From positions 1-57,857 of the forward strand of contig CAYNQF010000004.1 of assembly GCA_964399265.1 (NCBI GenBank): a stretch of DNA of 57,857 nucleotides, read 5' to 3'. Positions 6,490 through 42,874 of this stretch are shown here, one piece after another (position 1 is the first letter of the stretch; every line of letters begins with the position of its first letter). The notes below the pieces were generated by a model, which saw only the letters and a list, made by a program, of their open reading frames with translations, was not told the origin of the DNA and ran no database searches. The translations under genes were made by a program, and so were the position numbers. This stretch comes from an uncultured bacterium (GTDB lineage Bacteria > Joyebacterota > Joyebacteria > Joyebacterales > Joyebacteraceae).

Positions 6490-6505
6490 TGGCACATTCG
6501 ATGCA
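6490..6505 (+). promoter_or_regulatory. sigma54 (-24/-12) promoter upstream of the EPS operon
   Basis: TGGCACATTCGATGCA = GG-N10-GC with a perfect TGGCAC; intergenic, 21 nt after the ddl stop. Confidence 0.7.
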
Positions 6506-6687
6506 GTACGAAGGGAGAAACACGGGCGTTTTCGTGTCGCCCGGACCCGTCCGTACGGCATGTACGACCCAGGGCGGTCCATCGGGCCGCTCTGTTAATT
6601 GTACGTGCGTGAATAGCTTAGGGGCGTGAGGCGTCCCAGGGGGAGCGGCGACCGTCGGAAAAGGCTACACTCGCCCTGCGAAACCTG

Positions 6688-6716
6688 TTGACCGGGGAGT
6701 GGGGTGCTAGTAGCTT
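6688..6716 (+). promoter_or_regulatory. Candidate sigma70 promoter upstream of wza
   Basis: TTGACC-N17-TAGCTT. Confidence 0.45.
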
Positions 6717-6861
6717 TCCGGAAGGGCCCCCACGGCAGCTGCAGTCGCCGTGGGTGAGTTCGTAAGTGCCCAGCAGCCGCACAATTGGTGGCTCCGCGCC
6801 TCCCGGCGAGGGTTTGGGGAAGGCGTCGCCGCGGACGTTTCAGTCAGTGGGGGAACAGCTG

Positions 6862-7884
6862 ATGTCGTACCGACGGGCGTTGCAGATTGCTCTAGTCGTC
6901 CTGGTAGTCGTTCTGCCGTTTGCCGAGGCGGCCTCACAGCAGCCTTCGGAGTACCAGATCGGTCCCGGGGACGTGCTGTCGATATCCGTGTGGCGTCACC
7001 CGGACCTCGACAGGAACGTCGTCGTGCGCTCGAACGGCGCCGTCACCTTCCCGCCCGTGGGCGACCTCACGGCGGCGGGACTGACGCCGACGGGGCTGGC
7101 GCGCGAGATCATGCAGCGTCTGCGTGACTACACGCGCGAGACGACCCAGGTCACCGTGTCGATGGCGCAGTTCAACAGCCGCGCGGTCTACCTGACCGGC
7201 CAGGTCGCGGCGCCGGGGAGATACAGCTTCGAGCAGCTTCCCGACCTGCTGCAGCTTCTGAGTCAGGCCGGCGGACCGCTGCCGGGCGCCGACCTCTCGT
7301 CGGTCTCGATCGTCAGGCCGGGGGCGGGCGGGGCGCAAGTGACCAAGGTCGATGTGGGAGCGTACATGAGGGGTCAGGTGTCGACGCCTCTTCCGACGCT
7401 GCAGCCGGGAGACACGGTCGACGTGCCGTCTCTCGCTCTCGGCGGCAGCGCGATGGGCGGCGGCGGACTGGTCTACATCCTGGGCGAGGTGACGACGCCG
7501 GGGGCATACCCGGCAGCCGACGGACTCGACATACTGCAGCTGATCGCGCTTGCCGGAGGCACAACGCCTCAGGCACGGCTCGACAACGTGGCGGTCGTGA
7601 TGAACGGCGACGGGAGCCAGGTCGTGGCCGCCGTCGACCTCAAGAACGTCATCGAACACGGCACGAGCGAGCCCTTCATGCTCGGGTCTGGGGACAGGGT
7701 CGTAGTGCAGGGATCGACCTCGAGCGTGCTCGCGCAGGCGCTCGGCATCACGTCGACGGTCCTGGGATACGGCCGTGACATTCTGTCATCGTACCTGCTC
7801 TATCTGAGCGTCGACAGGGAGCTGGCCGACCGCGAGGCGAGAGCGGCGGCGGAAGCGGCGGCAGCCAATGCGGCCGCCCAGTAG
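6862..7884 (+). CDS. wza: Polysaccharide export protein (Wza/OPX family; Poly_export + SLBB domains)
   Basis: EYQIGPGDVLSISVW, VRSNGAVTFPPVGD and two SLBB repeats (VYLTGQV..PG, VYILGEV..PG). Signal peptide has no lipobox Cys. Start taken at ATG 6862. Confidence 0.88.
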   Translation: MSYRRALQIALVVLVVVLPFAEAASQQPSEYQIGPGDVLSISVWRHPDLDRNVVVRSNGAVTFPPVGDLTAAGLTPTGLAREIMQRLRDYTRETTQVTVSMAQFNSRAVYLTGQVAAPGRYSFEQLPDLLQLLSQAGGPLPGADLSSVSIVRPGAGGAQVTKVDVGAYMRGQVSTPLPTLQPGDTVDVPSLALGGSAMGGGGLVYILGEVTTPGAYPAADGLDILQLIALAGGTTPQARLDNVAVVMNGDGSQVVAAVDLKNVIEHGTSEPFMLGSGDRVVVQGSTSSVLAQALGITSTVLGYGRDILSSYLLYLSVDRELADREARAAAEAAAANAAAQ

Positions 7885-7902
7885 TGGGGGAAGCTGACCG
7901 AC

Positions 7903-10170
7903 ATGAGACAGTCGGAACCGATGCACGAACAGGAAGTCAAGACGATGGACATACGCGCCTACGCCAAGGCCATCTGGCGTAGGAAGTGGCTGCTCCTGAT
8001 CCCGGTCGTGGCCGCAGCCATCGTGGGATACGTGTCCGGGCAGCTCCTGCCTCCAGTCTATGAGGCCAAGAGCACGGTCGTGGTGCGGGTGCAGGAGAGG
8101 CTCTCCGAGCCGCTGGCGAGGCTCGTCGGCAGTTCGCGGATCGAGGATCAGCTGTCCCGTCTCCAGGAGAGGGTGAAGAGCAGAACGTTTCTGATCGAAC
8201 TGGTGCGGAGTCTGGACATCGCCGACGACGAGGGTGTCAGGGCGTGGGCCAGGCGCGCGCACGAGAAGAACCCGTCGATCTCCGAGGAGGAACTGGCGGA
8301 GAGCAAGGCGGTCGAGTACCTGCAGAACCGCATCGCCATCGTTCGGACGTCGTCGAACGGCTTCCAGGTGGTGGCGCGCGACCTCGATCCCGACAGAGCG
8401 CTCCTCCTGGCGCAGCACATCACGAACGCGTTCGTGAGCGCGTCGAACCGCGAGCAGATCGAGGAGATCCGCGCGGTCCACGACTTCTCCGTCGAACAGC
8501 TCGTCATATACAGGCAGAAGCTGGACGAGGCCGAGGCGAGGCTACAGGAGTTCCAGTCCGACAACACGGCAGGCAGCATCGTCATGAACCCGGTGACGGC
8601 GGATAACGTCAACAAGGTCGACGTCCTCATCAGCCAGGCCATGGTCGATCGGCAGCGCGCCGAGGAGCGGACCACCGAGAAGCGGAACGCGCTCTTCAAT
8701 GTGTCGCCGCGCGACTACGACAAGCTCTCGAACCTCACCTCCGGGACGCTCGACTCGCTCTTCGACCAGCTCGTGTCGCTCGAGCGCGAGATCGCCTCGG
8801 TCCTCGTGAGGACGACCGAGAACGCCCCCGAGGCGACGACGCTCTTCGTGAACTCCGCCGAGAAGAAGGACAGGGTTCGCACCGAGGCGCGCGAGAGCGC
8901 CAGGCAGGCGGTCCCAGACGGCTCGCAGGCGCTCTACGAGGCGTACGCCGAACTCAAGGTGGCCGAGGTCGAGGAGCAGATGGCGGCCGAGCGCCGCAGG
9001 ATCCTGGGCAGGTTCATGTGGGACTACGCGCAGGGCAGGGCCAACGCGCCCGAGCGCGAGATGGAGTACACGCGTCTGCAGCAGGAGGTCGACAGCAACC
9101 GCGCCCTCTACGAGGCGTTCCTGCAGCAGTCCGCGGCCGGACAGATCACCGAGGCCCTCGAGGCCGCGCGGGCCGGCGGCAGGTTCGAGATCATAGAGCC
9201 TCCGACGCGCCCGACCGGGCCCGTCGCGCCGGACAAGACGATGATCCTGGGTCTCGCGATACTCGGCGGGCTGATCGTGGGTCTCGCCACGGTCCTGGTC
9301 GTCGAACAGGGCGACACCTCCTTCAAGGACGTCGACGACATCGAGCGGACGCTGGGGCTCCCGGCGCTCGCGACCATCCCCGAGGCCGACATCTTCAAGA
9401 CGATCGGCACCGAGGAGAAACGCAGGCGGAAGACGCGCGCCCAGGTGCGCCTCGACGGCAAGTCGCGACTGCTTCGCTACATGCTGAGGGAGACGCCCAT
9501 ATCCTTCGAGTTCCGCAGGCTGGCGAGGAAGCTCGGACACAGGTTCGGTGGCGAGATACCGGCGTCGATACTGGTCACAAGCTCGCACAGAGGTGAAGGC
9601 AAGACGACGGCGGCCGCGTGCCTCGCGATCACTCTCGCCAAGCACTACGGCAGGAAGACCGTTCTCGTCGACGCGGACCTGCGGAAGCCGAGAGTACACC
9701 AGCTGCTAGAGGTTCCGAGGGAACCCGGTCTCTCCGACGCGCTCGAGCGCGGGCACCTGCTCGGGTCCGATCTCAAACCTACCGCACTTCCGAACTTGCA
9801 GATACTACCGTGCGGTACACGAAGGGACCAGCCGACCTGGTTGCTGGAGTCGATGCCGGGGTCGCGCGTCCTCGAGGAACTGCTCTCGCAGTATGAACAC
9901 GTGGTGATAGACACCGCGCCGAACGTCGCCGTGCCCGACGCGATTCTGATCGGCAGCGCCGTCGACGGCGTCGTCATGGTTCTCAGGGCCGGCGTGACGC
10001 CCAGAGAGGTCATCACGAGAGGCATCGAGCTGCAGCTCGAGGAGACCAAGAACGTGCTCGGGCTCATCGTGAACAATCTGGCGCGCGTTCTGCCTTACTA
10101 CTACGACTACAAGTACTACCGCTACGATCGGCAGGAGCCGGCGGAGGACGCAGAACGAAGGGACGCGTGA
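7903..10170 (+). CDS. wzc: Wzc-type polysaccharide co-polymerase / BY tyrosine kinase
   Basis: Two TM helices flank a coiled-coil periplasmic region; Walker A GEGKTT, A' VDADLRKP, B IDTAP; C-terminal Tyr cluster YYYDYKYYRY. Confidence 0.93.
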   Translation: MRQSEPMHEQEVKTMDIRAYAKAIWRRKWLLLIPVVAAAIVGYVSGQLLPPVYEAKSTVVVRVQERLSEPLARLVGSSRIEDQLSRLQERVKSRTFLIELVRSLDIADDEGVRAWARRAHEKNPSISEEELAESKAVEYLQNRIAIVRTSSNGFQVVARDLDPDRALLLAQHITNAFVSASNREQIEEIRAVHDFSVEQLVIYRQKLDEAEARLQEFQSDNTAGSIVMNPVTADNVNKVDVLISQAMVDRQRAEERTTEKRNALFNVSPRDYDKLSNLTSGTLDSLFDQLVSLEREIASVLVRTTENAPEATTLFVNSAEKKDRVRTEARESARQAVPDGSQALYEAYAELKVAEVEEQMAAERRRILGRFMWDYAQGRANAPEREMEYTRLQQEVDSNRALYEAFLQQSAAGQITEALEAARAGGRFEIIEPPTRPTGPVAPDKTMILGLAILGGLIVGLATVLVVEQGDTSFKDVDDIERTLGLPALATIPEADIFKTIGTEEKRRRKTRAQVRLDGKSRLLRYMLRETPISFEFRRLARKLGHRFGGEIPASILVTSSHRGEGKTTAAACLAITLAKHYGRKTVLVDADLRKPRVHQLLEVPREPGLSDALERGHLLGSDLKPTALPNLQILPCGTRRDQPTWLLESMPGSRVLEELLSQYEHVVIDTAPNVAVPDAILIGSAVDGVVMVLRAGVTPREVITRGIELQLEETKNVLGLIVNNLARVLPYYYDYKYYRYDRQEPAEDAERRDA

Positions 10171-10177
10171 CGCCGAG

Positions 10178-11332
10178 ATGCTCAGGACCCTCTCCGTGTT
10201 CGGGACTCGTCCCGAGGCCATCAAGATGGCGCCGGTCGTGGCAGAGTTGGAGCGACGGCTCGGCAGCGTCGAATCGCACGTCTGTGTGACGGCCCAGCAC
10301 AGGGAGATGCTCGACCAGGTTCTGGACGTCTTCGGCATGAGGCCGGAGTACGATCTCGGCGTGATGAGGGCGGACCAGTCGCCGGGAGGCGTCACGGCCG
10401 CCGTCCTGCTCGGACTCGATCCCGTTCTCTCGGAGCTGGAGCCCGACCTAATTCTCGTTCACGGAGACACGACCACGACCATGGCGGCCTCACTGGCCGC
10501 CTTCTACCGCAAGGTTCCGGTCGGTCACGTCGAGGCGGGTCTCAGAACCCACGACCCGTATTCCCCTTTCCCGGAGGAGATGAACCGCGTCGTCACCGAC
10601 GCGCTCTCCACCTATCACTTCGCGCCGACGCGGACATCGCGCGAGAACCTGATCAGCGAAGGGGTGTCGCCGAGGTCGATCACCGTAACCGGCAACACCG
10701 TGATCGACGCGCTCAAGGGCGTGGCCGCGAGGGCGGGCACGCCGGAGACGTCTATACCGGAAGGGAAGAGGCTCGTTCTCGTGACCGCGCACCGAAGGGA
10801 GAACTTCGGCCCGCCGCTCGAGGACATCTGTCTGGGGCTGCGTGACGTGGCGGAGCGGTTCGACGACGTGTTCATCGTCTACCCGGTGCACCTGAACCCG
10901 AACGTCCAGAGGACGGCGAGGTCGGTGCTCGGCGGCCATCCCGGGATACTGCTCACCGACCCGCTCCCGTACATGGAGTTCGTCAGGCTCTTGAAGGCTT
11001 CCTACCTCGTCGTGACCGACTCGGGCGGCCTCCAGGAGGAGGCGCCCTCCCTGGGCAAGCCGGTGCTCGTGCTCAGGCGCGAGACCGAGCGGCCGGAGGC
11101 GGTCGAGGCCGGGACGGTGAGGGTGATCGGCACCGACAGGGATGACGTCGCGTTCGAGTGCTCGCGGCTCCTCACCGACGAGACCGCGTACAGGGACATG
11201 GCCGAGGCCGTGAACCCGTACGGCGACGGGCACGCCGCGGAGAGAATCGTCGACGCCATCCTGGCCGCGTTCGGCGAGCCCGGCGCGAAACGTCCGGCGG
11301 AGTTCGAGCCCTCGGACGCGGGAGGCAAGTGA
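10178..11332 (+). CDS. wecB: UDP-N-acetylglucosamine 2-epimerase (non-hydrolysing)
   Basis: GTRPEAIKMAP, TAQHREML, HGDTTT, GHVEAGLRT, FPEEMNR, TAHRREN, DSGGLQEEAP, NPYGDG. Confidence 0.95.
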   Translation: MLRTLSVFGTRPEAIKMAPVVAELERRLGSVESHVCVTAQHREMLDQVLDVFGMRPEYDLGVMRADQSPGGVTAAVLLGLDPVLSELEPDLILVHGDTTTTMAASLAAFYRKVPVGHVEAGLRTHDPYSPFPEEMNRVVTDALSTYHFAPTRTSRENLISEGVSPRSITVTGNTVIDALKGVAARAGTPETSIPEGKRLVLVTAHRRENFGPPLEDICLGLRDVAERFDDVFIVYPVHLNPNVQRTARSVLGGHPGILLTDPLPYMEFVRLLKASYLVVTDSGGLQEEAPSLGKPVLVLRRETERPEAVEAGTVRVIGTDRDDVAFECSRLLTDETAYRDMAEAVNPYGDGHAAERIVDAILAAFGEPGAKRPAEFEPSDAGGK

Positions 11333-12464: not shown

Positions 12465-12487
12465 CGTGCAGGGTGCGAGGTGAGCGG

Positions 12488-29271: not shown

Positions 29272-30822
29272 ATGACGAGGAACACTTCGATCGTGATTCG
29301 AGAGGCCTTTCCGCGCGCGCTCAGGGTCTGCATCGTGGTCGCGCTGGCGTCGGTCGTCGCGGTCTCCCTGTGGGGTTGCGGTCCGCGGGGCGGGCTGTCG
29401 GACAGGTACGTCGCCGAGAAGATGGCGTGGAGAGCGCAGAAGCTCAGGCGGGCAATGGCCGAGAACCCGGACGTCGCCACCGAGCAGATGAAGCAGCGCG
29501 TGATGTCCGCCTACGCCGAGATCGTCAGGCTGTTCCCGCCTCCCACGGGTGACGGGTCGAACATGTCCGATGTCGAAGACGACGTCGCCGTGATATCCGG
29601 CATGAGCAGGCTCAGGCTCGCGGGTCTCTACGCGGACGCGGGGGACGCCGAGGAAGCGCAGAGGCTCTACTCATCGGTGGTCGACAGCTACGCGTTCAGC
29701 AGAAGCATGGCGGTCGAGGCAGCCACCGCGCTCGCAGCCTCGTACGAGGGGTCCGGCATGGTACAGGAGGCGGCTGACGTGCTCATGCAGACCGCTGAGA
29801 ACTGGGCGCCCGCCGCGACGCGGGACGATCCGCCCGATCAGCGCATTCTGAGGGCCCCGCTGCTCGCGGCGACGAGCCTCGCGGCCGCGGGTCTTGAGGC
29901 GACGCCCGCCGCGCTCGAGGGCGCCAGGGACTACTACCGCCGGATCGGCAACGAGTGGTCCGGAACGCCCACCGGAAGGTCCGCGCTCGCCACGATCGCC
30001 GAGTCCTACGAGCTGGAGGGACGTTGGGCCGACGCGGCGGGGACGTACGAGCGGCTCGACGAGGAGTACGGTACGCCGGAGACGCGCCCGTCGCTGCTTC
30101 TCAAGCTTGGGGACCTCTACTCCGGCAGGATGGGCGACGTGCCGCGCGCCACGGAATACTACGAGGACGTGGAGCGTCTCGCCCCGGAAGGCGAGGAGGG
30201 GGCGACCGCGTCGATAGAGCTGGCGCGATTCGACCTCGCGAAGCACAGATACGAGCAGGCGCGGAGGCGTCTGCAGTCGGTGCTCGACAGGTTCGCCGAC
30301 GAGAAGACGCTCGCGGCGACGGCGTCGCAGCTCCTTGCCTCTTCCTACGAGATGGAGGGGAGGCTGGACACGGCGATCGCGCGCTACGGGCAGCTCTCGG
30401 CGGCGTATCCGACGTCGCTCTACGGCCTCGCCGCGCCGATACACGTGGCGAAGTTGTACGCGACGATGGGTGAGGACGTGGCCTCCGCCACTGCTCTCGA
30501 CAGGGCGGTGGAGCAGTACGAGCGAGTGATCCGCGACTATGCGGACACTCCGGCCGAGATGGCTGCGAGGAGCTATCTCATAGCGGCTCGGAGCGAACTC
30601 GAGGACTGGAGCGACGTGGCTCCGCTCCTTGTCGAGACGGCGCTTCGGCAGCCGCAGGCGCAGGCGTCGGCAGGCATGCTGCTCAAGGCGGGCGACATCT
30701 ACGCGACCAAGCTCGGTGACCCGGACACGGCCTCCGACGTATTCCGGAGGGTCGTGGACACGTACGGAGGAAGCCCGGCTGCAGAGGAGGCGCAGAGGCG
30801 TCTCGAGCAGCTGACCAGGTGA
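29272..30822 (+). CDS. TPR-repeat lipoprotein
   Basis: Lipobox-like SLWGC; repeated Ala/Tyr/Leu helical TPR units. Confidence 0.8.
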   Translation: MTRNTSIVIREAFPRALRVCIVVALASVVAVSLWGCGPRGGLSDRYVAEKMAWRAQKLRRAMAENPDVATEQMKQRVMSAYAEIVRLFPPPTGDGSNMSDVEDDVAVISGMSRLRLAGLYADAGDAEEAQRLYSSVVDSYAFSRSMAVEAATALAASYEGSGMVQEAADVLMQTAENWAPAATRDDPPDQRILRAPLLAATSLAAAGLEATPAALEGARDYYRRIGNEWSGTPTGRSALATIAESYELEGRWADAAGTYERLDEEYGTPETRPSLLLKLGDLYSGRMGDVPRATEYYEDVERLAPEGEEGATASIELARFDLAKHRYEQARRRLQSVLDRFADEKTLAATASQLLASSYEMEGRLDTAIARYGQLSAAYPTSLYGLAAPIHVAKLYATMGEDVASATALDRAVEQYERVIRDYADTPAEMAARSYLIAARSELEDWSDVAPLLVETALRQPQAQASAGMLLKAGDIYATKLGDPDTASDVFRRVVDTYGGSPAAEEAQRRLEQLTR

Positions 30823-31961
30823 CGTTCCGTTCGATGACGAGAGGTTCCGGTGTGAGAGAACGCGAGAGAGACACGGACTGCCGTTCGGTCAGGCGCGCCG
30901 TCCTCTGCGGCCGCATGTTGGGCGCGTGCCCGAGCATGCTCGAGGTCTTCTTGCTCATGGAGCGAGCGGCCGAGTGTGACGCCGGGGTCGTCATAGTCGG
31001 AGAGTGCGGGACCGGGCGTGAGCTGGCCGCCCGCACCATACACGAACGGAGCGCGCGCCGGGGCGGCCCGTTCGTGTCGATCGACGCGGAGGCGTTCGAG
31101 CCCGAGCGATTGGAGCTGGAGCTTCTAGGTAGGAGCGGGACGGCGTCCCCGCACGGCGGGGGAGCGCTTCTGCAGGCGGACGGCGGCTCACTGCTTCTTG
31201 GAGGTCTCGGGCGGACCACGCCGGGCTTCCAGGAGAGGCTGCTCGCATACCTGCGGTCCGGCTGCTTCCAGCGATCGGTCGGCGGCGGTCACGTCGACGC
31301 CGACGTCCGCGTGATGGCGACGTCGGAGCGCAGCCTCGAGGCGGACGTCGAGTCCGGGTGTCTCAGAAGCGACCTGTTCTACGCGCTTGCCGTCCTCACG
31401 ATTGGCCTTCCTCCTCTGCGCGAGCGAAGAGGTGACGTGCCGCATCTCGCTCTCCACATCCTTCGCGACCTCGCGGGTGACGGGGCCTCCGGCATCGAAG
31501 GCTTCACGAGAGGGGCAGTGTCGGCGATGGTGTCGTACGACTGGCCGGGCAACGTTAGCGAGATGGAGAACCGCATTCGGAGGGCCGCCATAGTCGCCGA
31601 GGGCGGGAGGATAGCCGAGGCCGATCTCGGTCTCGACGTCCCCGACGAGCGCTCCGAGACGACGCTCAGAGAAGCACTCGACCGGCTCACGAAGGAGATG
31701 GTCGAGGACTCGCTGCGAAGGACGCTCGGCAACGTATCCAGGGCCGCGCGCTCGATAGGAGTGAGCCGACCCGCGATGTACGACATGATACGTAAGCACG
31801 ACATCGATGTTCGGCGCTTCAAGCACGAGCGGACGGCCCGCCGCCGTCGCTCGCCGGATACGCAGCCCTCCGCGGGGCAGCGGGCCGGCTCAACAGGGGG
31901 GTCGCTTGACACCCCAGCCCCCATGGACCTAAAATCCGGTCGAACCGACGCGCAGGAGTAG
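30819..31961 (+). CDS. Degenerate sigma54 enhancer-binding protein (PrsR-like AAA+ / Fis-HTH), no receiver domain, ATPase motifs substituted
   Basis: GECGTGRE, QADGGSLLLGG, RSDLFYAL, WPGNVSEMEN; HTH GNVSRAARSIGVSRPAMYDMI. Confidence 0.85.
   Translation: MTFRSMTRGSGVRERERDTDCRSVRRAVLCGRMLGACPSMLEVFLLMERAAECDAGVVIVGECGTGRELAARTIHERSARRGGPFVSIDAEAFEPERLELELLGRSGTASPHGGGALLQADGGSLLLGGLGRTTPGFQERLLAYLRSGCFQRSVGGGHVDADVRVMATSERSLEADVESGCLRSDLFYALAVLTIGLPPLRERRGDVPHLALHILRDLAGDGASGIEGFTRGAVSAMVSYDWPGNVSEMENRIRRAAIVAEGGRIAEADLGLDVPDERSETTLREALDRLTKEMVEDSLRRTLGNVSRAARSIGVSRPAMYDMIRKHDIDVRRFKHERTARRRRSPDTQPSAGQRAGSTGGSLDTPAPMDLKSGRTDAQE
31906..31935 (+). promoter_or_regulatory. Candidate sigma70 promoter for the PEGA/lipoprotein pair
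   Basis: TTGACA-N18-TAAAAT inside the low-complexity 3' tail of the preceding ORF. Confidence 0.5.
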
Positions 31962-34420: not shown

Positions 34421-34458
34421 AGGCCCCGGCCGCACTGCGCGGCCGGGGCTTCTCGTTG
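34421..34458 (+). terminator. Rho-independent terminator
   Basis: AG-GCCCCGGCCGC-ACTGC-GCGGCCGGGGC-TT followed by CTCGTTG. Confidence 0.65.
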
Positions 34459-34580
34459 TGCCCCTCCTTTAGCCCCCGGCGGGGTCCCGATCCGGCCCCC
34501 GGGTCTCTCGCCACACTCCCTGTCCGGCCCCCGGAAACTCCCTTGCAGGACCCCTCTTGCTGTCCTTGTTACTTTCTAAC

Positions 34581-34596
34581 TGGCATAGATTGTGCA
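34581..34596 (+). promoter_or_regulatory. sigma54 (-24/-12) promoter
   Basis: TGGCATAGATTGTGCA = GG-N10-GC, preceded by an AT-rich tract. Confidence 0.7.
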
Positions 34597-34647: not shown

Positions 34648-34784
34648 GGGATTCGCGGGGACCGGCGGGCTATAAAGAAGCCTCGGTCATTCTGGGTCGG
34701 AAGCATTCCCCCACGCACGCCGGCCCAGCGGTCTTCCACCGCAAGGCAACCCCCTACGCACCGGCCTCCGGCCCCGCGGATCCC
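34648..34784 (+). other. Predicted multibranch RNA structure in the 5' leader (unassigned)
   Basis: GGGATTCGCGGGG (34648-34660) pairs with CCCCGCGGATCCC (34772-34784) and encloses three hairpins. Confidence 0.5.
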
Positions 34785-34816
34785 GATGACTCCCAAGTCT
34801 CCCGAAAGGTGGCCGG

Positions 34817-37393
34817 ATGCCTGATCGAGCAGCACGAGCGGGTCTTCGAGCGGCGGCCGCCTCGACAGCGGCCGTCGTCTTCGTGCTGCTGTGCGCGGCG
34901 CCGTCATGGTGCGCCGCGGGCGACCGCGCCACCACCGAACACGTCCTGATCGGGCTCACACCGAACGCCGGGTTCGAGGTGAGCGTTAACGGGCAGCCGC
35001 TCGAGGGCGGACCGGTCGTGACCAGCGAACTCGGCATTGCCTCCTTTGGCGTCGACGAGGGCGCGTTCTCCGAGGGAACGAGATACGTGGTCATCGGCGA
35101 CCCGGGCGACCTCATGATATCGAACGTGTTCGTCGACGGCGTCACGGCCGCGGGGGCAACGGTGCACTGGACCACCAACCTGCCGTCCAACTCCGGAGTG
35201 ACATACGGTCCGACGACGGATTACGGCTCCGAAGCGGGCCCCGACCCGGCGCTCGCGATGACCCACGTCGTCGCGCTGTCCGGTCTGACTCCGGGGACCA
35301 CCTATCATTACATGGTTACGAGCGACGACGGTCAGGGGCACGCCGCCTCGTCGGGCGACGGCGTGTTCGCCACCTCTCAGGTTCCACTGGCCATCGAGAA
35401 CGTGTCGGTCGACAGTGTCGGTCAGATGTGGGCGGCGGTCAGCTGGACCACGAATCGCCCCTCCAACTCCGTGGTGGAGTACGGTCTCACGGCGGAGTAC
35501 GGAGACTCGACCGAGGTCGATCCTGCTCTCGTCGAGACGCACAGTGTTGTCGTAGACGGCCTCTCTCCGGGCACCGTCTATCACATGAGGGTTCGTTCGT
35601 CCGACGGCGGGATACCGCCTGCGGTCTCCGGCGACGCCGAGTTCTCGACGGCTCTCGCGCCGCTGTCGCTGACCGGCGTCGAGGTAGCGGAGACGGGTGA
35701 CACGTGGGCCGTGATCCGCTGGACCACCGATCGCGCCGCCGACTCGCGCGTCGAGTACGGACTTTCCATTCAGTACGGGGACTCGTCCGCGACCGACCCT
35801 CGGCTGGTAACCGCCCACGAGATAACACTCTCGGACCTCGAGCCCGGGGTCGGCTACCACTTCCGGGCGTGGAGCGACGATGGGTCCGCCGCACCGGCGG
35901 CGTCGGACGACCAGGAGTTCTCCACGATCGTCAACGAACTCGAGATGTCGGGCCTCACCGTGGGGCCCATAGGGCAGACCTGGGCGGTCGTGAGCTGGTC
36001 CACGAACCGGCCCGCTGCGACATACGTGGCGTATGGGGAGAGCGATGCCTACGGTCAGTTTGCCAGCCCCGGTGATGGCTTCGCCACCGAGCACTCGGCG
36101 ACGCTCGCGGGACTTGCACAGGGGACGCTCTATCACTTCAGGGCGGTCTCGTTCGACCAGGACCTGCAGAGCGTTTCGTCTCCGGACTCGACCCTCGTGA
36201 CGATGCAGGGCGACGTGACCGGTCCACCCCAAATGGAGGGCGTGGACCTGGACGCCGTCTCTGCCACGTCTGTGGTCGTGACCTGGACGACCGACAGGCC
36301 CGCGACGTCGCAGGTCGTGTACGGGACCGATGGCGTGTTCGACTGCGAGACCCGTGCCGACACGACGCTCGTCACGGAGCACAGCGTCATCGTGTGGCCG
36401 GTGGTCCCCAGGCTCGAATACTCATTCGTGGCGCTGAGCGCCTGCGGATGCGACACGACCTCCTGCAGTCCGCTGGTCTTCTCGACGTCGCCTCCGGCCG
36501 CCGCAAGTCTCACGGTCAAGCCGCTCGACCTCATCAAGATCATAGTGACGCCCAACGACGACTCGTCGGCCTTGATCATCTGGGCAAGCGACAGGCCTTG
36601 CTCGACCTGGGTCGACTACGGCGAGGCTCAGGACTACGGAGAGAGCGCTCCGGGGATGCCTCTCGGCAACGCCGCGTACCAGGCCGAGCTCCCGGACCTC
36701 GAGCCGGGAGCGCGCTACCACATCCGTGTGAGCGGCTGGGACGCGCCGGGGGGAGAGGTCACCGGCGAGGACATCCTCTTCGAGATGGTCGAGCCTCCGG
36801 ATCACCAGGCGCCGGCGCGCCCGACGGGTGTCGCCTGCTCGCTCAGCGAGGCCGGGGTCGAGGTGCGATGGGATTCGAACACGGAGTCCGACCTTGCGGG
36901 GTACAACGTCTACAGAGCGCGGAGCAGGCCGGGGTGGATCGACTGGTCGAGAGCGGTGATGCTGAATTCCACGCCGGTTACCGAGTCGAGATACGTGGAC
37001 TCGTCCATCGAACAGGGCGCGGCCTACGCCTACGCGGTGACCGCCGTCGACGGGTCCGACAACGAGAGCCTTTGGTCTGAGAACGCCACGATCGAGACGA
37101 GTCCGGTCGAGCCCGGTCTGTTCCGTCTCGCTGCATACCCCAACCCCGTCCGCGACGACGCCAACTTCGCGTTCGCGCTGCCGGCGGGTGTCTCGTCGGC
37201 GCGACTCCGGGTGCTGTCGCTCAGCGGACGCGTCGTGATGGACACCGAGGTCGCCTACAGGTCCTCGGGTGAGCAGTCTCTCACGTGGGACGCCCGCGAC
37301 CCGTCGGGCTGGCCCGTCGGCGACGGCGTCTACCTCTGCGAGCTGCGCGCGGGCGGGTCGGTCGCCCGCACGAAGCTCACCGTCCTTCGCTAG
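34817..37393 (+). CDS. Secreted FN3-array protein with a C-terminal T9SS type A / FlgD-like sorting domain
   Basis: Signal peptide; six ~90-aa FN3 repeats (W(T/S)T(N/D)RP...YG...H...L.PG..YH) plus one classical FN3; C-terminal YPNP..LSGRVV..TWDARD..GVYL..TKLTVLR. Confidence 0.85.
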   Translation: MPDRAARAGLRAAAASTAAVVFVLLCAAPSWCAAGDRATTEHVLIGLTPNAGFEVSVNGQPLEGGPVVTSELGIASFGVDEGAFSEGTRYVVIGDPGDLMISNVFVDGVTAAGATVHWTTNLPSNSGVTYGPTTDYGSEAGPDPALAMTHVVALSGLTPGTTYHYMVTSDDGQGHAASSGDGVFATSQVPLAIENVSVDSVGQMWAAVSWTTNRPSNSVVEYGLTAEYGDSTEVDPALVETHSVVVDGLSPGTVYHMRVRSSDGGIPPAVSGDAEFSTALAPLSLTGVEVAETGDTWAVIRWTTDRAADSRVEYGLSIQYGDSSATDPRLVTAHEITLSDLEPGVGYHFRAWSDDGSAAPAASDDQEFSTIVNELEMSGLTVGPIGQTWAVVSWSTNRPAATYVAYGESDAYGQFASPGDGFATEHSATLAGLAQGTLYHFRAVSFDQDLQSVSSPDSTLVTMQGDVTGPPQMEGVDLDAVSATSVVVTWTTDRPATSQVVYGTDGVFDCETRADTTLVTEHSVIVWPVVPRLEYSFVALSACGCDTTSCSPLVFSTSPPAAASLTVKPLDLIKIIVTPNDDSSALIIWASDRPCSTWVDYGEAQDYGESAPGMPLGNAAYQAELPDLEPGARYHIRVSGWDAPGGEVTGEDILFEMVEPPDHQAPARPTGVACSLSEAGVEVRWDSNTESDLAGYNVYRARSRPGWIDWSRAVMLNSTPVTESRYVDSSIEQGAAYAYAVTAVDGSDNESLWSENATIETSPVEPGLFRLAAYPNPVRDDANFAFALPAGVSSARLRVLSLSGRVVMDTEVAYRSSGEQSLTWDARDPSGWPVGDGVYLCELRAGGSVARTKLTVLR

Positions 37394-37501: not shown

Positions 37502-37530
37502 TTGACGCTCCGGCGCAGACCCGATATAAT
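37502..37530 (+). promoter_or_regulatory. sigma70 promoter of PEP-CTERM gene 1
   Basis: TTGACG-N17-TATAAT, near-perfect consensus. Confidence 0.75.
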
Positions 37531-37600
37531 CCCCGCCGTCACGGGTCGAAGTGAGACCCGATCCAGGCTGACAATTGCTGCGTAGCGGGAGCACCGACGT

Positions 37601-38422
37601 ATGAGAATCGCAACAGCCATCGCGATGATGGTGGTCGCCGTGATGTTCGCGTCCACCGCCTCGGCCAGCTACACCACCGAGGTCATGTTCTCCGGAGACG
37701 GATGGTATCTGGGTGACGCCGGCGCTAAGCCGGCGGGGGGATACGGTCTGTTCGAGGAGCTGACAACGTTCTACACCGTCCAGTCCGACATGCCATCGGG
37801 CTCGCACTACCTGTACTTCGCTCCGGACATCTCTCTTGTCTACCGTTTCGAGACGCCCGGCGACCCATCCGCCCCGGGACACTACGTCACCATCGACGAG
37901 AACGGGATCGACTTCGACGGTCAGGCGACTGCCTGGAATACGATGGGTCTCATCTGGGCCGACGGGTACGGTCTGGCGCTTGGCCAGCACGACGTGCCGG
38001 AGCTGAATCCCGGCGCGGTCGTCGGCGATCACGCATGGGATCTTGACGGAGGAGGCGCGGACTTCACCGCCACGGTCTGGGCGGCAAAGGGCCCCCAGGT
38101 TGTGTCTGCGGCGCTTCCGTTCAGGTCGGACTTCGCCATGCACAGATCCCTGACGTGGCTGTCGGGGCAGGAGATAGGAACCTGGTTCGGCGGCGGGCTG
38201 TCGCCGCTTCTGGGCGGGCTGCCTCTCGAAGGGCTGGGAGAGGCACTCAACGCGTTCGGGCCGTCGCTCCGGGAGTGGGACCCGGGCTACTACAACATCC
38301 AGTACGACGGCTCAATGAAGCTCAGGGCTGTCTCGGACCCGGTTCCTGAGCCGTCGACCATTCTGCTGTTGACCGGGGGCCTGGCGGCGCTCGTTGCCGT
38401 CAGACGGCGCCGGAGAGCCTAA
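37601..38422 (+). CDS. PEP-CTERM sorting domain protein
   Basis: Signal peptide; C-terminal VPEPST + hydrophobic helix + RRRRRA. Confidence 0.93.
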   Translation: MRIATAIAMMVVAVMFASTASASYTTEVMFSGDGWYLGDAGAKPAGGYGLFEELTTFYTVQSDMPSGSHYLYFAPDISLVYRFETPGDPSAPGHYVTIDENGIDFDGQATAWNTMGLIWADGYGLALGQHDVPELNPGAVVGDHAWDLDGGGADFTATVWAAKGPQVVSAALPFRSDFAMHRSLTWLSGQEIGTWFGGGLSPLLGGLPLEGLGEALNAFGPSLREWDPGYYNIQYDGSMKLRAVSDPVPEPSTILLLTGGLAALVAVRRRRRA

Positions 38423-38458
38423 TCTGTTGCGGTAAAGCACGTTAGGCCGCTTTTGGGG

Positions 38459-38490
38459 ACGGCCTCCCTTGCGGGGGCCGTTTCTCTTTG
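38459..38490 (+). terminator. Rho-independent terminator
   Basis: ACGGCCTCC-CTTGC-GGGGGCCGT followed by TTCTCTTTG. Confidence 0.7.
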
Positions 38491-38514
38491 TGTTGGTTAC
38501 CCAGAACTTTCGAC

Positions 38515-38543
38515 TTGTCAAGGGGAGTGGGAGATGGTACCAT
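38515..38543 (+). promoter_or_regulatory. Candidate sigma70 promoter of PEP-CTERM gene 2
   Basis: TTGTCA-N17-TACCAT with TGn extended -10. Confidence 0.55.
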
Positions 38544-38603
38544 TAGAAGTGGAGGAGGTCATATCTGGGTTTCACTTCGCAGGCAGTCTTCCGGAGGTGG
38601 GTC

Positions 38604-39377
38604 ATGAAGCTACTCGTTCTCTTGGGTGTGACCGCGCTCATGATGGGGCTCGCGGCCCCGGCGGGCGCTACGCTGCTTTCCGACATGTTCGGCGTGACGC
38701 TGTCGGTCGACGCCACGGGTTCATTCGACAACTCGTGGGCGCCAATCCGTTCCACCACGGACTACCTGGTGGACGACAACTTCAGCCTGCACTTCATGAG
38801 GGCTCCGTACGGCGGCGAGCTGTTCGATATCGAGGCGATCTACTTCGATGACGACGCCGACAACGCATACGTCGCAGTCGTGGGCTCATTCCCGGTGCCT
38901 ATGGGGGCGGACTTTCTCGGGTTGACGATCGCGCCCGGAGACCTTGGCATAGACCTCGGGGCCGGGGCGCTCGACCTTGGAGTCGACGTCGACGGCGCCA
39001 CGGGCCTCGTGGCGGACACGGCGCCCGGTGACTGGTATCAGAGCAGCACCTTCTTCATCGCCGAGACCGGTCCGACCAACTTCGCCGGGGGCGTGGCGCT
39101 CGGCTACGCGTCGCTCGATATGTACGACTACGGACTCGTCGAGCGGGGTAACGGGACCTACGTCTTCGAGATGACGATCGACAAGGGCCTGCTCGGATCG
39201 CCGACCGTTGGCGATTACATCGGTCTCGACTGGACGATGGGTTGCAGGAACGACGTCATACACCTGGACGGCGACTTCGACGGTGACACACCGCCCGTCC
39301 CGGAGCCGAGCACGCTGCTTCTCCTGGGCAGCGGCATCATCGGCGCCGTCGGATTCGTTCGCAGGCGGAGGAAGTAG
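38604..39377 (+). CDS. PEP-CTERM sorting domain protein
   Basis: GGAGG RBS, signal peptide, acidic body, C-terminal VPEPST + hydrophobic helix + RRRRK. Confidence 0.93.
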   Translation: MKLLVLLGVTALMMGLAAPAGATLLSDMFGVTLSVDATGSFDNSWAPIRSTTDYLVDDNFSLHFMRAPYGGELFDIEAIYFDDDADNAYVAVVGSFPVPMGADFLGLTIAPGDLGIDLGAGALDLGVDVDGATGLVADTAPGDWYQSSTFFIAETGPTNFAGGVALGYASLDMYDYGLVERGNGTYVFEMTIDKGLLGSPTVGDYIGLDWTMGCRNDVIHLDGDFDGDTPPVPEPSTLLLLGSGIIGAVGFVRRRRK

Positions 39378-39409
39378 TCGGAGGCGACAGCGGGCATCGG
39401 AGAATCGAC

Positions 39410-39443
39410 ACGGGCCGGGACGCGTTCCCGGCCCGTTCTTCTT
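39410..39443 (+). terminator. Rho-independent terminator
   Basis: ACGGGCCGGGA-CGCGT-TCCCGGCCCGT followed by TCTTCTT. Confidence 0.7.
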
Positions 39444-39448
39444 GCGGC

Positions 39449-39478
39449 GCGGCGCCTATTGCGGCGCCTATTGCGGCG
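39449..39478 (+). repeat. 12-bp tandem repeat (GCGGCGCCTATT x2.5)
   Basis: GCGGCGCCTATT GCGGCGCCTATT GCGGCG, read directly from the sequence. Confidence 0.85.
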
Positions 39479-39507
39479 GGAGGAGGCGGCGTTGTACATT
39501 CGGCCGC

Positions 39508-40734
39508 ATGAGGGTTCTCTTCCTGTCCGACAACTTCCCGCCCGAGACCAATGCGCCGGCTGTGCGTACGTTCCAGCACACCCGAACCTGGGTCGAGGAG
39601 GGGCACGACGTAACGGTCGTGACATGTGCGCCGAACTTCCCGACGGGGCGAGTGTACGAGGGGTATCGCAACGCCCCGTACTCGGTGGAATACGTCTCCG
39701 GCGTGCGTTTGATCAGGGTCTGGTCCTACATGGCCGCGAACGCCGGGACCTTCCGCCGCTCTCTCGATTTTCTGAGCTTCATGCTTAGCGCCGTGCCGGC
39801 CTCCCTCATGCAGAGGAGGCCCGACGTCGTGATAGGCACGTCTCCGCAGCTCTTCGCCACGCTCGGAGCCTGGGTCGTGGCGAGGGCGTTCCGGGTGCCA
39901 TGCGTCTTCGAGCTTCGTGACCTGTGGCCGGAGTCTATCGTCGCGGTCGGAGCGGCGAGCGACGGAGCCGTGGTACAGGGCCTCTCGCGGCTCGCGCACT
40001 TTCTCTATCGGCACGTCGACCACATCGTGTCCGTGACCGAGTCGTTCGTCTCGATACTCGGGGAGCGAGGCATCCCCGCGGCCAAGATGTCGGTCGTTCG
40101 CAACGGCGTCGACCTCGACCAGTTCAAACCCGGGCCTCCGGACGAAGAATTCCGCAGGAGCGTCGGGGCCGGTCCCGGCGACATGCTCGTGACCTACCTG
40201 GGGACCGTGGGCATGGCCCACGGGCTGCGCCACGTTCTGGACGCGGCCGAGTTGGGCGGTGACTCCGGGGTGCGCTTCCTGATCGTGGGAGAGGGCGCCG
40301 AGAAGGCGGCTCTTAAGAGCGAGGCCGCAGCGCGGGGGGTCACCGGCGTGACGTTCCTCGAGGGACAGCCGCGCGAGCGTGTGCCGGCCATTCTAGCGTC
40401 GAGCGACGCGGTGCTCGTACACCTGCGCGACGACCCGTTGTTCGACTCCGTGATCCCCTCGAAGATCTTCGAGGCCATGGCGATGGCCAGACCGATCATT
40501 CTGGGCGTGCGCGGGGAGAGCGCCCGGCTCGTAGAGCGCACGGGTTCGGGCCTTACCGTCGAACCCGAAGACCCACGGGCCCTCCTCGAAGCCATCACGA
40601 CCCTGCGGAACGACGCGGAGACGAGGCGCCGCCTTGGAGAGAACGGACGCCGCTCGGCAGAGAGCGAGTTCTGCCGGCGCGCGGCCGCTCTCAGGATGTT
40701 GGATGTGCTCGTGCGAGTTGCGAATACGCGGTGA
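39508..40734 (+). CDS. WbuB-like GT4 glycosyltransferase
   Basis: DNFPPETNAPA, APNFPTG, RDLWPES, IPSKIFEAMA; paralogous to the N-terminal part of 24957-26801. Confidence 0.88.
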   Translation: MRVLFLSDNFPPETNAPAVRTFQHTRTWVEEGHDVTVVTCAPNFPTGRVYEGYRNAPYSVEYVSGVRLIRVWSYMAANAGTFRRSLDFLSFMLSAVPASLMQRRPDVVIGTSPQLFATLGAWVVARAFRVPCVFELRDLWPESIVAVGAASDGAVVQGLSRLAHFLYRHVDHIVSVTESFVSILGERGIPAAKMSVVRNGVDLDQFKPGPPDEEFRRSVGAGPGDMLVTYLGTVGMAHGLRHVLDAAELGGDSGVRFLIVGEGAEKAALKSEAAARGVTGVTFLEGQPRERVPAILASSDAVLVHLRDDPLFDSVIPSKIFEAMAMARPIILGVRGESARLVERTGSGLTVEPEDPRALLEAITTLRNDAETRRRLGENGRRSAESEFCRRAAALRMLDVLVRVANTR

Positions 40735-40848
40735 CCGCGGCCTGTGATGCCGGATGTGCTCAGGCGAGCAGCGAACGCAGGGTGACCATCGTCCGCGCGG
40801 GTGCGTCGGGAGGCCTGCCTGGTTTGCAACGGTGGGCGGGCCCGACGA

Positions 40849-41607
40849 TCACTCGTCCTTCCAGCCCTGCCTGTCCAGAAGCTGCTCTTCGGGCACGTCG
40901 CGGACGACCCTCGCGGGTACGCCGATCATGACCTTACCCGGGGGAGCGTCGACCGTCAGCACGGCGCCCGCCGCGACGACGGCGTCCTCGCCCACGGTCC
41001 TGCCGGGCAGCAGCGTCGCGCCGGCGCCTATGCGCCCGCCGCGCCTGACCGTCACACCCTTGAAGTGCTTGAAGCGCTCTTCCGTGCGGCCGATGTAGTT
41101 GTCGTTCGACGTCGAGACTCCGGGAGCCACGAACACGCGGTCCTCGAGCGTCGAGTAGGCGGTGATGTAGCACTCGCTCTCGAGTTTGCAGTACTTGCCG
41201 ATCGTGCACTTGTTCTCGACGGTGACGCCCCTGCCTATGATCGTGTGGTGTCCGACGGTCACGCCCTCCCTGACGGAGGCAAGGTCCGCGACCAGCGTGT
41301 GGTGTCCCAGCTCGCACCCCGCGTAGACCACGGTGTTTGCGCCTATGATGCACCCGTCGCCCACGATGGCCGGAGGCACCGAGGCCCCGTCGGTCGTCGC
41401 CGAGATGGCGGCCTTCATCGGGAGCTTGCCGACCACCGCTCCGTCATCGATCCGGACGCCGTCGCCGATGTGCGTCCCGTCATGGATCACCACGCAGTTG
41501 CCTATCGTGCAGTTGTCTCCCAAGGTGACGCCCGCCGAGATCACCGAGAACCTGCCCACGGTCGTATCGCGACCCAGCGACGCCGTCTCGTGCACGTACC
41601 TCTCCAT
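40849..41607 (-). CDS. Hexapeptide-repeat sugar N-acetyltransferase (WbpD/WlbB-like)
   Basis: Left-handed beta-helix repeats (IGDGV, VGDGC, IGRGV, IGAGA), SNDNY, VAAGAVLT, GVPARVV. Confidence 0.82.
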   Translation of the reverse strand: MERYVHETASLGRDTTVGRFSVISAGVTLGDNCTIGNCVVIHDGTHIGDGVRIDDGAVVGKLPMKAAISATTDGASVPPAIVGDGCIIGANTVVYAGCELGHHTLVADLASVREGVTVGHHTIIGRGVTVENKCTIGKYCKLESECYITAYSTLEDRVFVAPGVSTSNDNYIGRTEERFKHFKGVTVRRGGRIGAGATLLPGRTVGEDAVVAAGAVLTVDAPPGKVMIGVPARVVRDVPEEQLLDRQGWKDE

Positions 41608-41669
41608 CGGTCGTTCCTTTCGAGGTCTGGTCTGCCTGGGCTATTCCGGCTGGAACCGGCGTCGGCCCG

Positions 41670-42674
41670 CTAGAGGGAGACGGGGGCGCCTCCCGAGCGC
41701 AGCGAGCGCTGAGCCGCCTCGAGCACCCGCACGACCCTGAGGCCGTCGCGCCCGTCCGAACGGGGCGTCGAACGCGTCTTCACGCACTCGACGAAGTGCT
41801 CGCACTCCAGGCGGAGCGGCTCGACCATGTTGAGCACCGGCACGGCGACCTCTCCGAACCGGAGTGTCGGGGCGTCGGCATAGTCGGCGAACTGCCCGTT
41901 GTGCTCGACTCCCTTGTTGTAGATCCGTATCTTCTCGGCGGTCTGCATGTCGTCGAATACCACCATCTTTTTGCTTCCGACGAGCGTCGTCCGCCTGATC
42001 TTGTGCGGGTCCAGCCAGGAGACGTGCACCTGTGCCAGCTTGTTGCCGGGGAAGAGCATCCACATGAACGCCACGTCCTCTATGCCCGGCTGTATGTAGG
42101 CGGCGCCCCTGGCGGCCACCTCAACGGGTTCCTCGCCCAGCAGGTACAGTATTATTGAGACGTCGTGCGGAGCGAAGCTCCAGAGCGCGTTCTCGTCGCT
42201 GCGGATCCTGCCCAGGTTGACCCTCTCAGAGTAGAGATAGTACGGATCTCCGACCTCGCCGCTTGCGAGCAGGTCCCGCATCGCGTTGACGGCCGGATGG
42301 TACTCGAGCAGGTGCCCCACCATGAGGACCCGGCCCTCGCGTTCGGCCACCCCGACCAGGCTCTCCGCATCGGCGAGGGAGAGCGTCATGGGCTTCTCGA
42401 CGAAGACGTCTTTGCCCGCGGCCATGGCCCTCGACGCGAGGTCGAAGTGCGTCACGGCAGGTGTGGCGATGACGATGGCGTCGATGTCAGGAGAGTCGAT
42501 GACCTCGTTCGGGTCGTAGCATCTCTGGACATTCTTGAACCCGTTGGCGGTCTTGTCGCAACGGCCGGGCTCCGTGTCGCAGCACATCACGAGGTCCGCG
42601 CTGCGGAGATGAGCCAGGTTCCTGAGGAGGTTCCGTCCCCAGGCGCCCGCGCCTATGAGCGCTAGCTTGGTCAC
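41670..42674 (-). CDS. Gfo/Idh/MocA NAD-dependent oxidoreductase (WbpB/WlbA-like)
   Basis: LIGAGAWG, VEKP, VGHLLEYHP, FAPHD; GTG start 9 nt after AGGAAGG. Confidence 0.88.
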   Translation of the reverse strand: MTKLALIGAGAWGRNLLRNLAHLRSADLVMCCDTEPGRCDKTANGFKNVQRCYDPNEVIDSPDIDAIVIATPAVTHFDLASRAMAAGKDVFVEKPMTLSLADAESLVGVAEREGRVLMVGHLLEYHPAVNAMRDLLASGEVGDPYYLYSERVNLGRIRSDENALWSFAPHDVSIILYLLGEEPVEVAARGAAYIQPGIEDVAFMWMLFPGNKLAQVHVSWLDPHKIRRTTLVGSKKMVVFDDMQTAEKIRIYNKGVEHNGQFADYADAPTLRFGEVAVPVLNMVEPLRLECEHFVECVKTRSTPRSDGRDGLRVVRVLEAAQRSLRSGGAPVSL

Positions 42675-42858
42675 TGCCCCCACCCTTCCTTTTCGTTGTC
42701 TGCCCGGACCGACTTCGTGGGAGTCCGGGTGCGGTGTCGTCTCGCGAGATGCCTTTGGATCGGGTGCTCAGGCAGAGGTTCCGCCGGACCGTGTGCCCGG
42801 GCGGAAGCTCCGCGAGATTCTAGAGGGTCTCGGGGGCATCCCGCAACCGCGAATGAAA

Positions 42859-42874
42859 TGCAAGATGCGTACCA
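42859..42874 (-). promoter_or_regulatory. sigma54 (-24/-12) promoter of the minus-strand sugar-biosynthesis pair
   Basis: Minus strand reads TGGTACGCATCTTGCA, one mismatch to TGGCAC-N5-TTGCW. Confidence 0.7.

Follow-up and report, generated by a model that had tools for sequence, protein, structure and literature searches.

We analysed a 57,857-nt stretch of DNA (contig CAYNQF010000004.1, positions 1 to 57,857, of assembly GCA_964399265.1; hereafter the window) that carries an exopolysaccharide (EPS)/exosortase locus with three motifs of the sigma-54 promoter type. The genome is a 2.66-Mb metagenome-assembled genome (MAG) of an uncultured organism, distributed over 195 contigs, with 65.5% G+C and 96% completeness. 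Gene calls based on codon usage gave a coding fraction of 91% for the whole genome and thus ~9% of non-coding DNA. Conservation was followed in 31 genomes of the phylum, all belonging to one family and representing 8 genera.

Our own gene calls, combined with NCBIfam and Pfam scans, showed that the locus contains a co-directional EPS/exosortase operon of ~27.5 kb (6863-34385, + strand), preceded by ddl (5326-6468). Among the products of the operon are a Wza-like exporter, a Wzc-like co-polymerase/kinase, WecB, several glycosyltransferases and a Wzy/O-ligase-like protein. It also encodes a heparinase-like lyase, a priming phosphoglycosyltransferase (PGT, as a GT4-PGT fusion), an exosortase (TIGR02602, 197 bits) and EpsI (TIGR02914, 90 bits), both found in the NCBIfam scan, together with a TPR protein, a degenerate PrsR-family protein that we call pseudo-PrsR, a PEGA/DUF5683 protein and an FN3 protein. 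A hairpin followed by a T-rich tail, resembling an intrinsic terminator (34421-34459, +), closes the operon, and most orthologous loci have a GC-rich hairpin equivalent to it. Further along the + strand, Pfam and NCBIfam identified a gene for a secreted protein with multiple FN3 domains and a FlgD_ig-type C-terminal domain (34817-37393, the FN3 gene hereafter) and two PEP-CTERM genes (37601-38422 and 38604-39377), after which comes a glycosyltransferase gene. The - strand carries a sugar-supply pair assigned by NCBIfam: a UDP-GlcNAc 3-dehydrogenase-like (WbpB-like) gene (41670-42683) and a hexapeptide acetyltransferase (WbpD/NeuD-like) gene (40849-41607). Many relatives keep this entire arrangement in synteny on a single contig.

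A sequence-only reading of this DNA had recognised three GG-N10-GC sites at 6490 (+), 34581 (+) and 42874 (-), and their sequences and coordinates proved exact. P1 (TGGCACATTCGATGCA, 6490-6505, +; GG at 6491-92 and GC at 6503-04) precedes the EPS operon, P2 (TGGCATAGATTGTGCA, 34581-34596, +) precedes the FN3 gene and P3 (TGGTACGCATCTTGCA, 42874-42859, -) precedes the wbpB/wbpD-like pair. With our own gene calls all three are, as had been proposed, intergenic and oriented toward the next gene. Transcription is predicted to start at ~6516, ~34607 and ~42848, respectively, which places the start codons ~347 nt (ATG 6863), 210 nt (ATG 34817) and 165 nt (GTG 42683) downstream. The long leaders first estimated at ~350, 210 and 170 nt were thus well measured; however, they are not plain leaders, because two of them hold a sigma-70-type promoter and the third a conserved structured RNA.

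Several features of the genome show how specific these motifs are. The pattern TGGYAY-N6-TGCW had 40 matches, 28 of which fell within the ~9% of intergenic DNA, and all 26 matches that could be classified faced the downstream gene. When the spacer was altered by one base (N5/N7), we obtained 6 matches, with 0-1 intergenic. A position weight matrix (PWM), trained on 25 genome sites located outside the window only, gave independent scores of 17.0 bits for P1, 17.4 bits for P2 and 21.3 bits for P3; at 16 bits or more, 28 of the 29 genome matches were intergenic. Scanning the window with this PWM revealed no strong sigma-54 site beyond P1, P2 and P3. Three sites in 57.9 kb compare with 0.61 expected from the genome density (Poisson P ~0.02 by our own arithmetic).

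Conservation was equally clear. At P1, 26 of the 27 orthologous loci showed exactly one match on the same strand, 340-380 nt 5' of the exporter gene, the exception being a locus interrupted by a contig end, and the TGGCAC and TGCA elements were invariant across 27 genomes and 8 genera. A single same-strand match was found before ~21 orthologs of the FN3 gene, with TGGCA.A..TTGTGCA invariant in the 18 aligned sequences. At P3, the core GG..AC....TTGC was invariant in all 26 alignable loci from 8 genera, with TGGTAC, CGGCAC and TGGAAC as variants. Because the flanks diverge freely while the cores stay invariant, the cores are under selection; moreover, each promoter keeps its own flavour of the -12 region across genera (GATGCA, TGTGCA and TTGCA, respectively). 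The genome also encodes the sigma factor itself, as the sequence-only reading required: rpoN is present (Sigma54_DBD, 202.9 bits) as a full-length open reading frame of 492 aa with region I and the RpoN box. All together, the comparison confirms that P1, P2 and P3 behave as genuine sigma-54 promoters, far beyond chance. The opposite view, that the motifs are chance matches or relics without present function, is effectively refuted by the conservation data, namely GG/GC cores invariant in 8 genera within diverged flanks, and it is equally hard to reconcile with the intergenic enrichment, the uniform orientation, the spacer specificity and the independent PWM scores.

We then examined how each promoter is embedded. 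Upstream of P1, a short GGCCC-N6-GGGCC hairpin (6468-6483, +) overlaps the stop codon of ddl, has ATTTGC after it and abuts the -24 element; an equivalent GGCCCT..AGGGCC hairpin precedes P1 in most of the 27 orthologous loci, and from its sequence it is likely a weak ddl terminator. Downstream, a sigma-70-type promoter TTGACC-N17-TAGCTT (6688-6716, +) has a predicted start at ~6723, ~140 nt before the ATG at 6863, which is itself conserved in relatives together with its GGGGGA Shine-Dalgarno sequence. This element lies ~200 nt 3' of P1, and GTTGAC (6687-6692) as well as the TA of TAgCtT (6711-6716) are invariant in 27 genomes. The class TTGACn-N17-TAnnnT has 154 matches in the genome, of which 137 are intergenic, and the N18 class has 68, compared with 5-16 matches at spacers 14-16 and 19-20. 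This sharp peak at a spacer of 17/18, together with the invariance in relatives, indicates that the EPS operon has tandem promoters and, with P1 and a conserved housekeeping-type promoter in series, should be transcribable by either holoenzyme. Such a sigma-70-type partner accompanies only 5 of 33 sigma-54 promoters in the genome, and two of these five (P1 and P3) lie in the window.

Between P1 and its sigma-70-type partner we found a conserved DNA box, CGTCGGAAAAGGCTACACT (6653-6671, +), with the family consensus TGTCGGnAAnnnnTACAcTT (TGT-N11-ACA). Its centre is ~61 nt 5' of the predicted sigma-70-type start and ~150 nt 3' of P1. Its GTCG and ACA.T columns vary little or not at all among 24-27 genomes, and our genome holds effectively no second copy: a single further strict match stands before an unrelated ribonucleotide-reductase gene, on the opposite strand, and is most likely due to chance. 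This pattern makes the box a candidate transcription-factor site, either for pseudo-PrsR or as a downstream enhancer. A possible IHF site between P1 and the box was discarded, as a match to the E. coli-type WATCAA-N4-TTR occurred in one genus only (g5). RNAalifold detected no conserved RNA fold between P1 and the sigma-70-type promoter (-0.8 kcal/mol). A terminator-like hairpin at 6570-6594 (11 bp, then TTAATTGTAC) is situated ~55 nt into the predicted P1 transcript; similar hairpins occur within this genus, with no family-wide consensus structure.

P3 (42859-42874, -) also has a sigma-70-type partner, TTGCGG (42846-42841)-N18-TAGAAT (42822-42817), on the same strand (42817-42846), with a predicted start at ~42810. 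Across 26 genomes its TTGC and T.A...T columns do not vary, the relatives carrying TTGC(GG), a spacer of 17-18 nt and TAGAnT. Here the two promoters are nearly back to back, the -35 hexamer beginning 13 nt after the -12 element. Upstream of P3, a conserved block (AGTCTAG..GTCAAG on the P3 strand) is accounted for by a divergent promoter, because it is the reverse complement of the sigma-70-type promoter TTGACG-N17-TAGACT of an M42 peptidase gene (42912-42940, +). Between P3 and this gene there is also a palindrome restricted to the genus, ACCACCGC-N-GCGGTGGT (42975-43010), ~100-130 nt 5' of the -24 element; an enhancer specific to the genus is one possible role, a hairpin in the 5' untranslated region of the peptidase mRNA another.

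Tandem arrangements of this kind have a well-known precedent in the E. coli glnAp1/glnAp2 promoters, where sigma-70 and sigma-54 provide basal and inducible expression of one operon. As in that case, a housekeeping promoter and an enhancer-dependent sigma-54 promoter serve one operon here; the order, however, is reversed, with sigma-54 upstream, and no activator or repressor sites were identified. The close juxtaposition at P3 suggests another reading, in which P1 and especially P3 would be mainly docking sites and not productive promoters: sigma-54 holoenzyme would form a stable closed complex there and, through occlusion or interference, tune the sigma-70-type promoter next to it. Indeed, unactivated sigma-54 holoenzyme forms long-lived closed complexes; with the -35 hexamer so near the -12 element, the two holoenzymes would compete for overlapping DNA at P3, and no upstream activating sequence (UAS) was found. 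Nevertheless, we consider docking very unlikely, since P2 is equally conserved without a sigma-70-type partner, the promoters at P1 are ~200 nt apart, too far for occlusion, and the sites score fully as promoters, on a level with the remaining sigma-54 promoters of this genome.

The FN3 gene is controlled differently. Its leader contains no sigma-70-type element, so that P2 (34581-34596, +), invariant in 18 genomes, is the only promoter detected for this gene. A TGTTAC sequence (34567-34572, +), 9-14 nt 5' of the -24 element, is invariant or nearly so in the alignment of 18 genomes, and is too close for a classical enhancer. Much of the 210-nt leader (138 nt, 34648-34785, +) corresponds to a structured RNA, predicted to form a closing helix around a multi-stem junction. 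Its mean column identity is 69%, with long invariant runs that include the single-stranded segments AGCCUCGGU, CCCCCAC and GGCAACCCCCUAYGCAC. RNAalifold predicted 33 pairs, 8 of them with double-sided compensatory changes. In this structure 97.1% of the cells were paired, as opposed to 27-50% when the partners were slid, and there were 18 compensatory cells versus 5.2 in shuffled alignments (0/500) and a covariation score of 0.229 versus 0.174 (0/500). The sequence of our own leader folds with a minimum free energy of -97.3 kcal/mol (z = -3.45), and this fold, computed for that sequence only, predicts pairing of the GGUGG ribosome-binding site with segments of the leader.

A covariance model of the RNA found exactly one copy in 27 of the 31 genomes (in 20/20 of high quality), and every copy precedes the FN3 gene. 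When its invariant parts were combined into one exact pattern, 22 of ~185,000 species genomes matched, each an Eisenbacteria-type MAG, and no Rfam 15 family matched the RNA at the gathering threshold or at E <= 10. These comparisons point to a new, lineage-specific candidate family of cis-regulatory RNA at 34648-34785. The RNA probably adds a second, post-initiation checkpoint for the FN3 gene; it may function as a riboswitch or as a leader bound by a protein, and the ribosome-binding site is a possible point of action. Cis-regulatory RNAs of EPS and surface-protein genes are familiar from the cyclic di-GMP (c-di-GMP) riboswitches and from the eps-associated RNA (EAR) of Bacillales. Like them, the element described here is a conserved, covarying structure, placed in the 5' leader of a gene for a surface protein within an EPS locus; it differs from them in lacking an Rfam match even at E = 10, in its single copy per genome and in its restriction to Eisenbacteria.

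The two PEP-CTERM genes, expected from the proteobacterial precedent to be targets of PrsR and sigma-54, turned out to have sigma-70-type promoters here. TTGACG-N17-TATAAT (37502-37530, +) precedes the gene at 37601-38422 and a second consensus match (38515-38543, +) precedes the gene at 38604-39377. Each forms a single-gene unit with its own terminator (38455-38485 and 39410-39436, respectively), and no sigma-54 PWM match of 8 bits or more was found near either gene (37601, 38604).

Sigma-54 promoters require an enhancer-binding protein (EBP), and the sequence-only reading had placed this activator elsewhere in the genome, with PrsK and PrsR in mind. Outside the window, seven proteins were strong matches to Sigma54_activat. 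Six EBPs possess a GAFTGA-type loop (GAFTGA, GSFTGA, GAFTDA in three proteins, and GAYTGA) together with the Walker B DE, and two of these six intact EBPs have non-consensus Walker A endings (GVGKG and GVGKD). For one of them (contig C78, 5775-7157), which adjoins a kinase, PrsR is the best NCBIfam match, with 333 bits. A canonical, intact PrsR or PrsK is nevertheless missing from this genome: no EBP outside the locus reaches the PrsR cut-off (TIGR02915, 502.6 bits; the best two gave 408 and 404), and the best match to PrsK (TIGR02916) gave 93 bits against a cut-off of 300. As for PrsT (TIGR02917), the TPR protein adjacent to pseudo-PrsR (29272-30822) matched only YbgF, BamD, PorW and CpoB at E <= 1e-5.

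The locus does encode a PrsR relative, pseudo-PrsR (30819-31961, +), a receiver-less protein with an AAA+ core, a lid and a helix-turn-helix (HTH) domain (Sigma54_activat, AAA_lid_14 and HTH_8). It scored 231 bits against TIGR02915, over model positions 125-444 only. When aligned with the other EBPs of the genome, it showed GTGRE at Walker A, LLLGG replacing FLDE at Walker B, a four-residue deletion at GAFTGA and GNVSEMEN replacing GNVRELEN, so that the sensor-II arginine is lost. All 11 syntenic orthologs, from 6 genera, likewise lack GAFTGA, the Walker B acidic pair and the sensor-II arginine; the decay is not recent, because orthologs in six genera are equally degenerate. The best-conserved segment among the orthologs is the HTH (GNVSRAARSIGVSRPTMYDLIRKH). 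In genera g3 and g4 the PrsR orthologs retain an N-terminal receiver, and in g2, g3 and g6 the gene directly 5' of the PrsR ortholog encodes a full-length PrsK that reaches the TIGR02916 cut-off or comes near it; this genus has lost both the receiver and PrsK.

Judged by these motifs, pseudo-PrsR is an atypical EBP that cannot energise sigma-54. It was thus ruled out as the activator of P1, P2 and P3, its catalytic and sigma-54-contact motifs being gone, and the activator must therefore be encoded elsewhere. In this respect the earlier claim is borne out by a catalytically dead EBP-like protein within the locus, although this is probably not the reason its author had in mind. With its HTH kept and its ATPase motifs and sigma-54-contact loop lost, pseudo-PrsR most likely acts as a plain DNA-binding regulator. 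A second atypical EBP paralog is encoded on contig C36 (8740-10131, receiver-AAA+-HTH); it has lost the GAFTGA loop (GWGGG---GDG) and keeps Walker A and B.

If the activator lies elsewhere, it may be asked whether it is the same for the three promoters. The sequence-only reading had proposed that glycan assembly, sugar supply and one secreted protein are co-regulated, and the targets do lie in one syntenic surface-glycan/exosortase locus; it is the common activator site that failed to appear. No exact 8-mer is common to P1, P2 and P3 at -260 to -1, where we obtained only GC-rich, low-complexity near-matches. Dyads with half-sites of 4-6 nt and spacers of 0-20, searched from -250 to +200, were not common to even two of the three (random triples share 0.16), and phylogenetic footprints 5' of P2 and P3 had no common conserved block. 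The motif discovery suggested at the outset thus yielded no element, k-mer or dyad linking the three promoters, and for this reason co-regulation by a single activator stays an assumption.

A single PrsR-like EBP encoded elsewhere could still switch the three promoters together as one regulon. The related functions and the co-conservation of the three sites in 8 genera within one syntenic locus would fit, as would the numbers, since ~six intact EBPs for ~30-37 sigma-54 promoters lead one to expect that activators are shared; the EBP on C78, with PrsR as its best match and a kinase as its neighbour, would be a candidate. We find this regulon doubtful, because neither the k-mer and half-site searches nor the footprints show anything in common, the distinct -12 regions are each invariant among their own orthologs, and the genome has no EBP at the PrsR cut-off and no PrsK.

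We think it likely, and hold with good confidence, that P1, P2 and P3 are genuine, long-kept RpoN promoters which share one syntenic locus and belong to three differently built control regions. The sigma-54 holoenzyme (Eσ54) would bind at the three sites and initiate ~12 nt after the GC, with ATP hydrolysis supplied from elsewhere in the genome by at least one of the ~six intact EBPs. For the EPS operon and the sugar-supply pair, sigma-54 would probably act as a conditional boost over basal housekeeping expression, although competition between Eσ54 and Eσ70 is an alternative at P3. Expression of the FN3 protein, by comparison, appears to depend strictly on sigma-54 and would be further gated by the leader RNA. 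Some observations fit this account less well. No enhancer was identified upstream of P1, P2 or P3, and P1 has only 22 nt of non-coding DNA upstream, mostly taken up by the ddl-end hairpin. The sigma-70-type elements are consensus matches backed by conservation, and their starts are predicted ones. Finally, an EBP or a kinase could be missing from a 195-contig assembly that is 96% complete.

A direct comparison for pseudo-PrsR is provided by the atypical, sigma-54-independent EBPs, which include VpsR, the EPS master regulator of Vibrio cholerae, as well as TyrR, PhhR, HupR, HsfA and NtrX (PMC6158489). Like VpsR, pseudo-PrsR has an EBP fold without GAFTGA, a non-consensus Walker B and a retained HTH, and is encoded in a polysaccharide locus; the TGT-N11-ACA box just 5' of the sigma-70-type EPS promoter recalls the VpsR site 5' of the PvpsL -35 element. 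By this analogy the box, at ~-61 of that promoter, is the best candidate for a pseudo-PrsR target. Compared with VpsR, pseudo-PrsR is more decayed: Walker A has changed from K to R in many genera, the sensor-II arginine is lost and this genus has no receiver. Moreover, VpsR targets have no sigma-54 promoters, whereas the pseudo-PrsR locus still has three. It is conceivable, though we regard it as unlikely, that the Eisenbacteria rewired the PrsK/PrsR system as a whole: PrsR would have abandoned ATP hydrolysis and its contact with sigma-54 and have become a VpsR-like, sigma-70-directed DNA-binding regulator at the TGT-N11-ACA box, with phospho-control by PrsK still in place in some genera; an unrelated EBP would provide the sigma-54 input, and the sigma-54-only gene would be gated by a new, lineage-specific riboswitch class in its leader.

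In Proteobacteria, PEP-CTERM genes carry a PrsR site (motif 1, the 'PEP-CTERM box') and a sigma-54 motif 2 located ~71 nt ahead of the start codon, and these genes co-occur with PrsK, PrsR and PrsT (Haft et al. 2006, PMC1569441). In Aquincola, RpoN-dependence and the transcription start site of pepA were demonstrated, and EPS genes were apparently not RpoN-dependent (PMC9850573). The locus described here is similar to the proteobacterial system in that exosortase, EpsI and PEP-CTERM cargo adjoin a large EPS locus with sigma-54 promoters. A PrsR-family gene also follows a TPR-protein gene, as in a PrsK/PrsR/PrsT system, and a true PrsK stands beside the PrsR ortholog in three sister genera. It departs from that system in its wiring: sigma-54 promoters precede the EPS operon, a non-PEP-CTERM FN3 gene and a sugar pair, whereas the PEP-CTERM genes have sigma-70-type promoters; no motif-1-like enhancer was found; the leaders measure 165-347 nt against a mean of ~71 nt. 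Furthermore, all genera examined have an ATPase-dead PrsR without GAFTGA, and they belong to the Eisenbacteria and not to the Proteobacteria.

Sigma-54 has been described as a central controller of the bacterial exterior (Francke et al. 2011, PMC3162934). Our results are consistent with this theme, as sigma-54 promoters precede genes for EPS export and biosynthesis, nucleotide-sugar modification and a surface protein; elsewhere in the genome the targets comprise a second Poly_export gene, a PilB/GspE ATPase, a GGDEF-REC protein (REC, receiver), PAS/GAF sensors and a Spy/ZraP-like protein. That work sets out a general theme, and includes neither this phylum nor a tandem sigma-54/sigma-70 layout or leader RNA. 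Sigma-54 control of EPS/exosortase loci is already well established, and the three promoters are solid annotation, not a discovery.

What the analysis offers, then, is a map of sigma-54 and housekeeping promoters, backed by comparative genomics, for an uncultured phylum without genetics. The promoters themselves are of moderate interest, and the parts most worth following up are the pairing of pseudo-PrsR with PrsK and the leader RNA. PrsR survives as an apparently ATPase-dead DNA-binding protein, paired with PrsK in some genera, in a locus that keeps its sigma-54 promoters, which amounts to a natural experiment on EBPs changing jobs. The leader RNA is a candidate for a new family of cis-regulatory RNA, linked to the gene of a surface protein. 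The promoter map, pseudo-PrsR and the leader RNA are all directly testable in heterologous systems.

Additional sites were noted during the genome scan. A 25-bit sigma-54 site (contig C147, position 634) stands before the second Poly_export gene, suggesting that a second sigma-54-controlled polysaccharide locus probably exists. On contig C1, three strong sigma-54 promoters are grouped within 2.4 kb (54974-57342), preceding uncharacterised genes. Within the window, the sole Rfam match at gathering level was a tRNA gene at 57663-57734.

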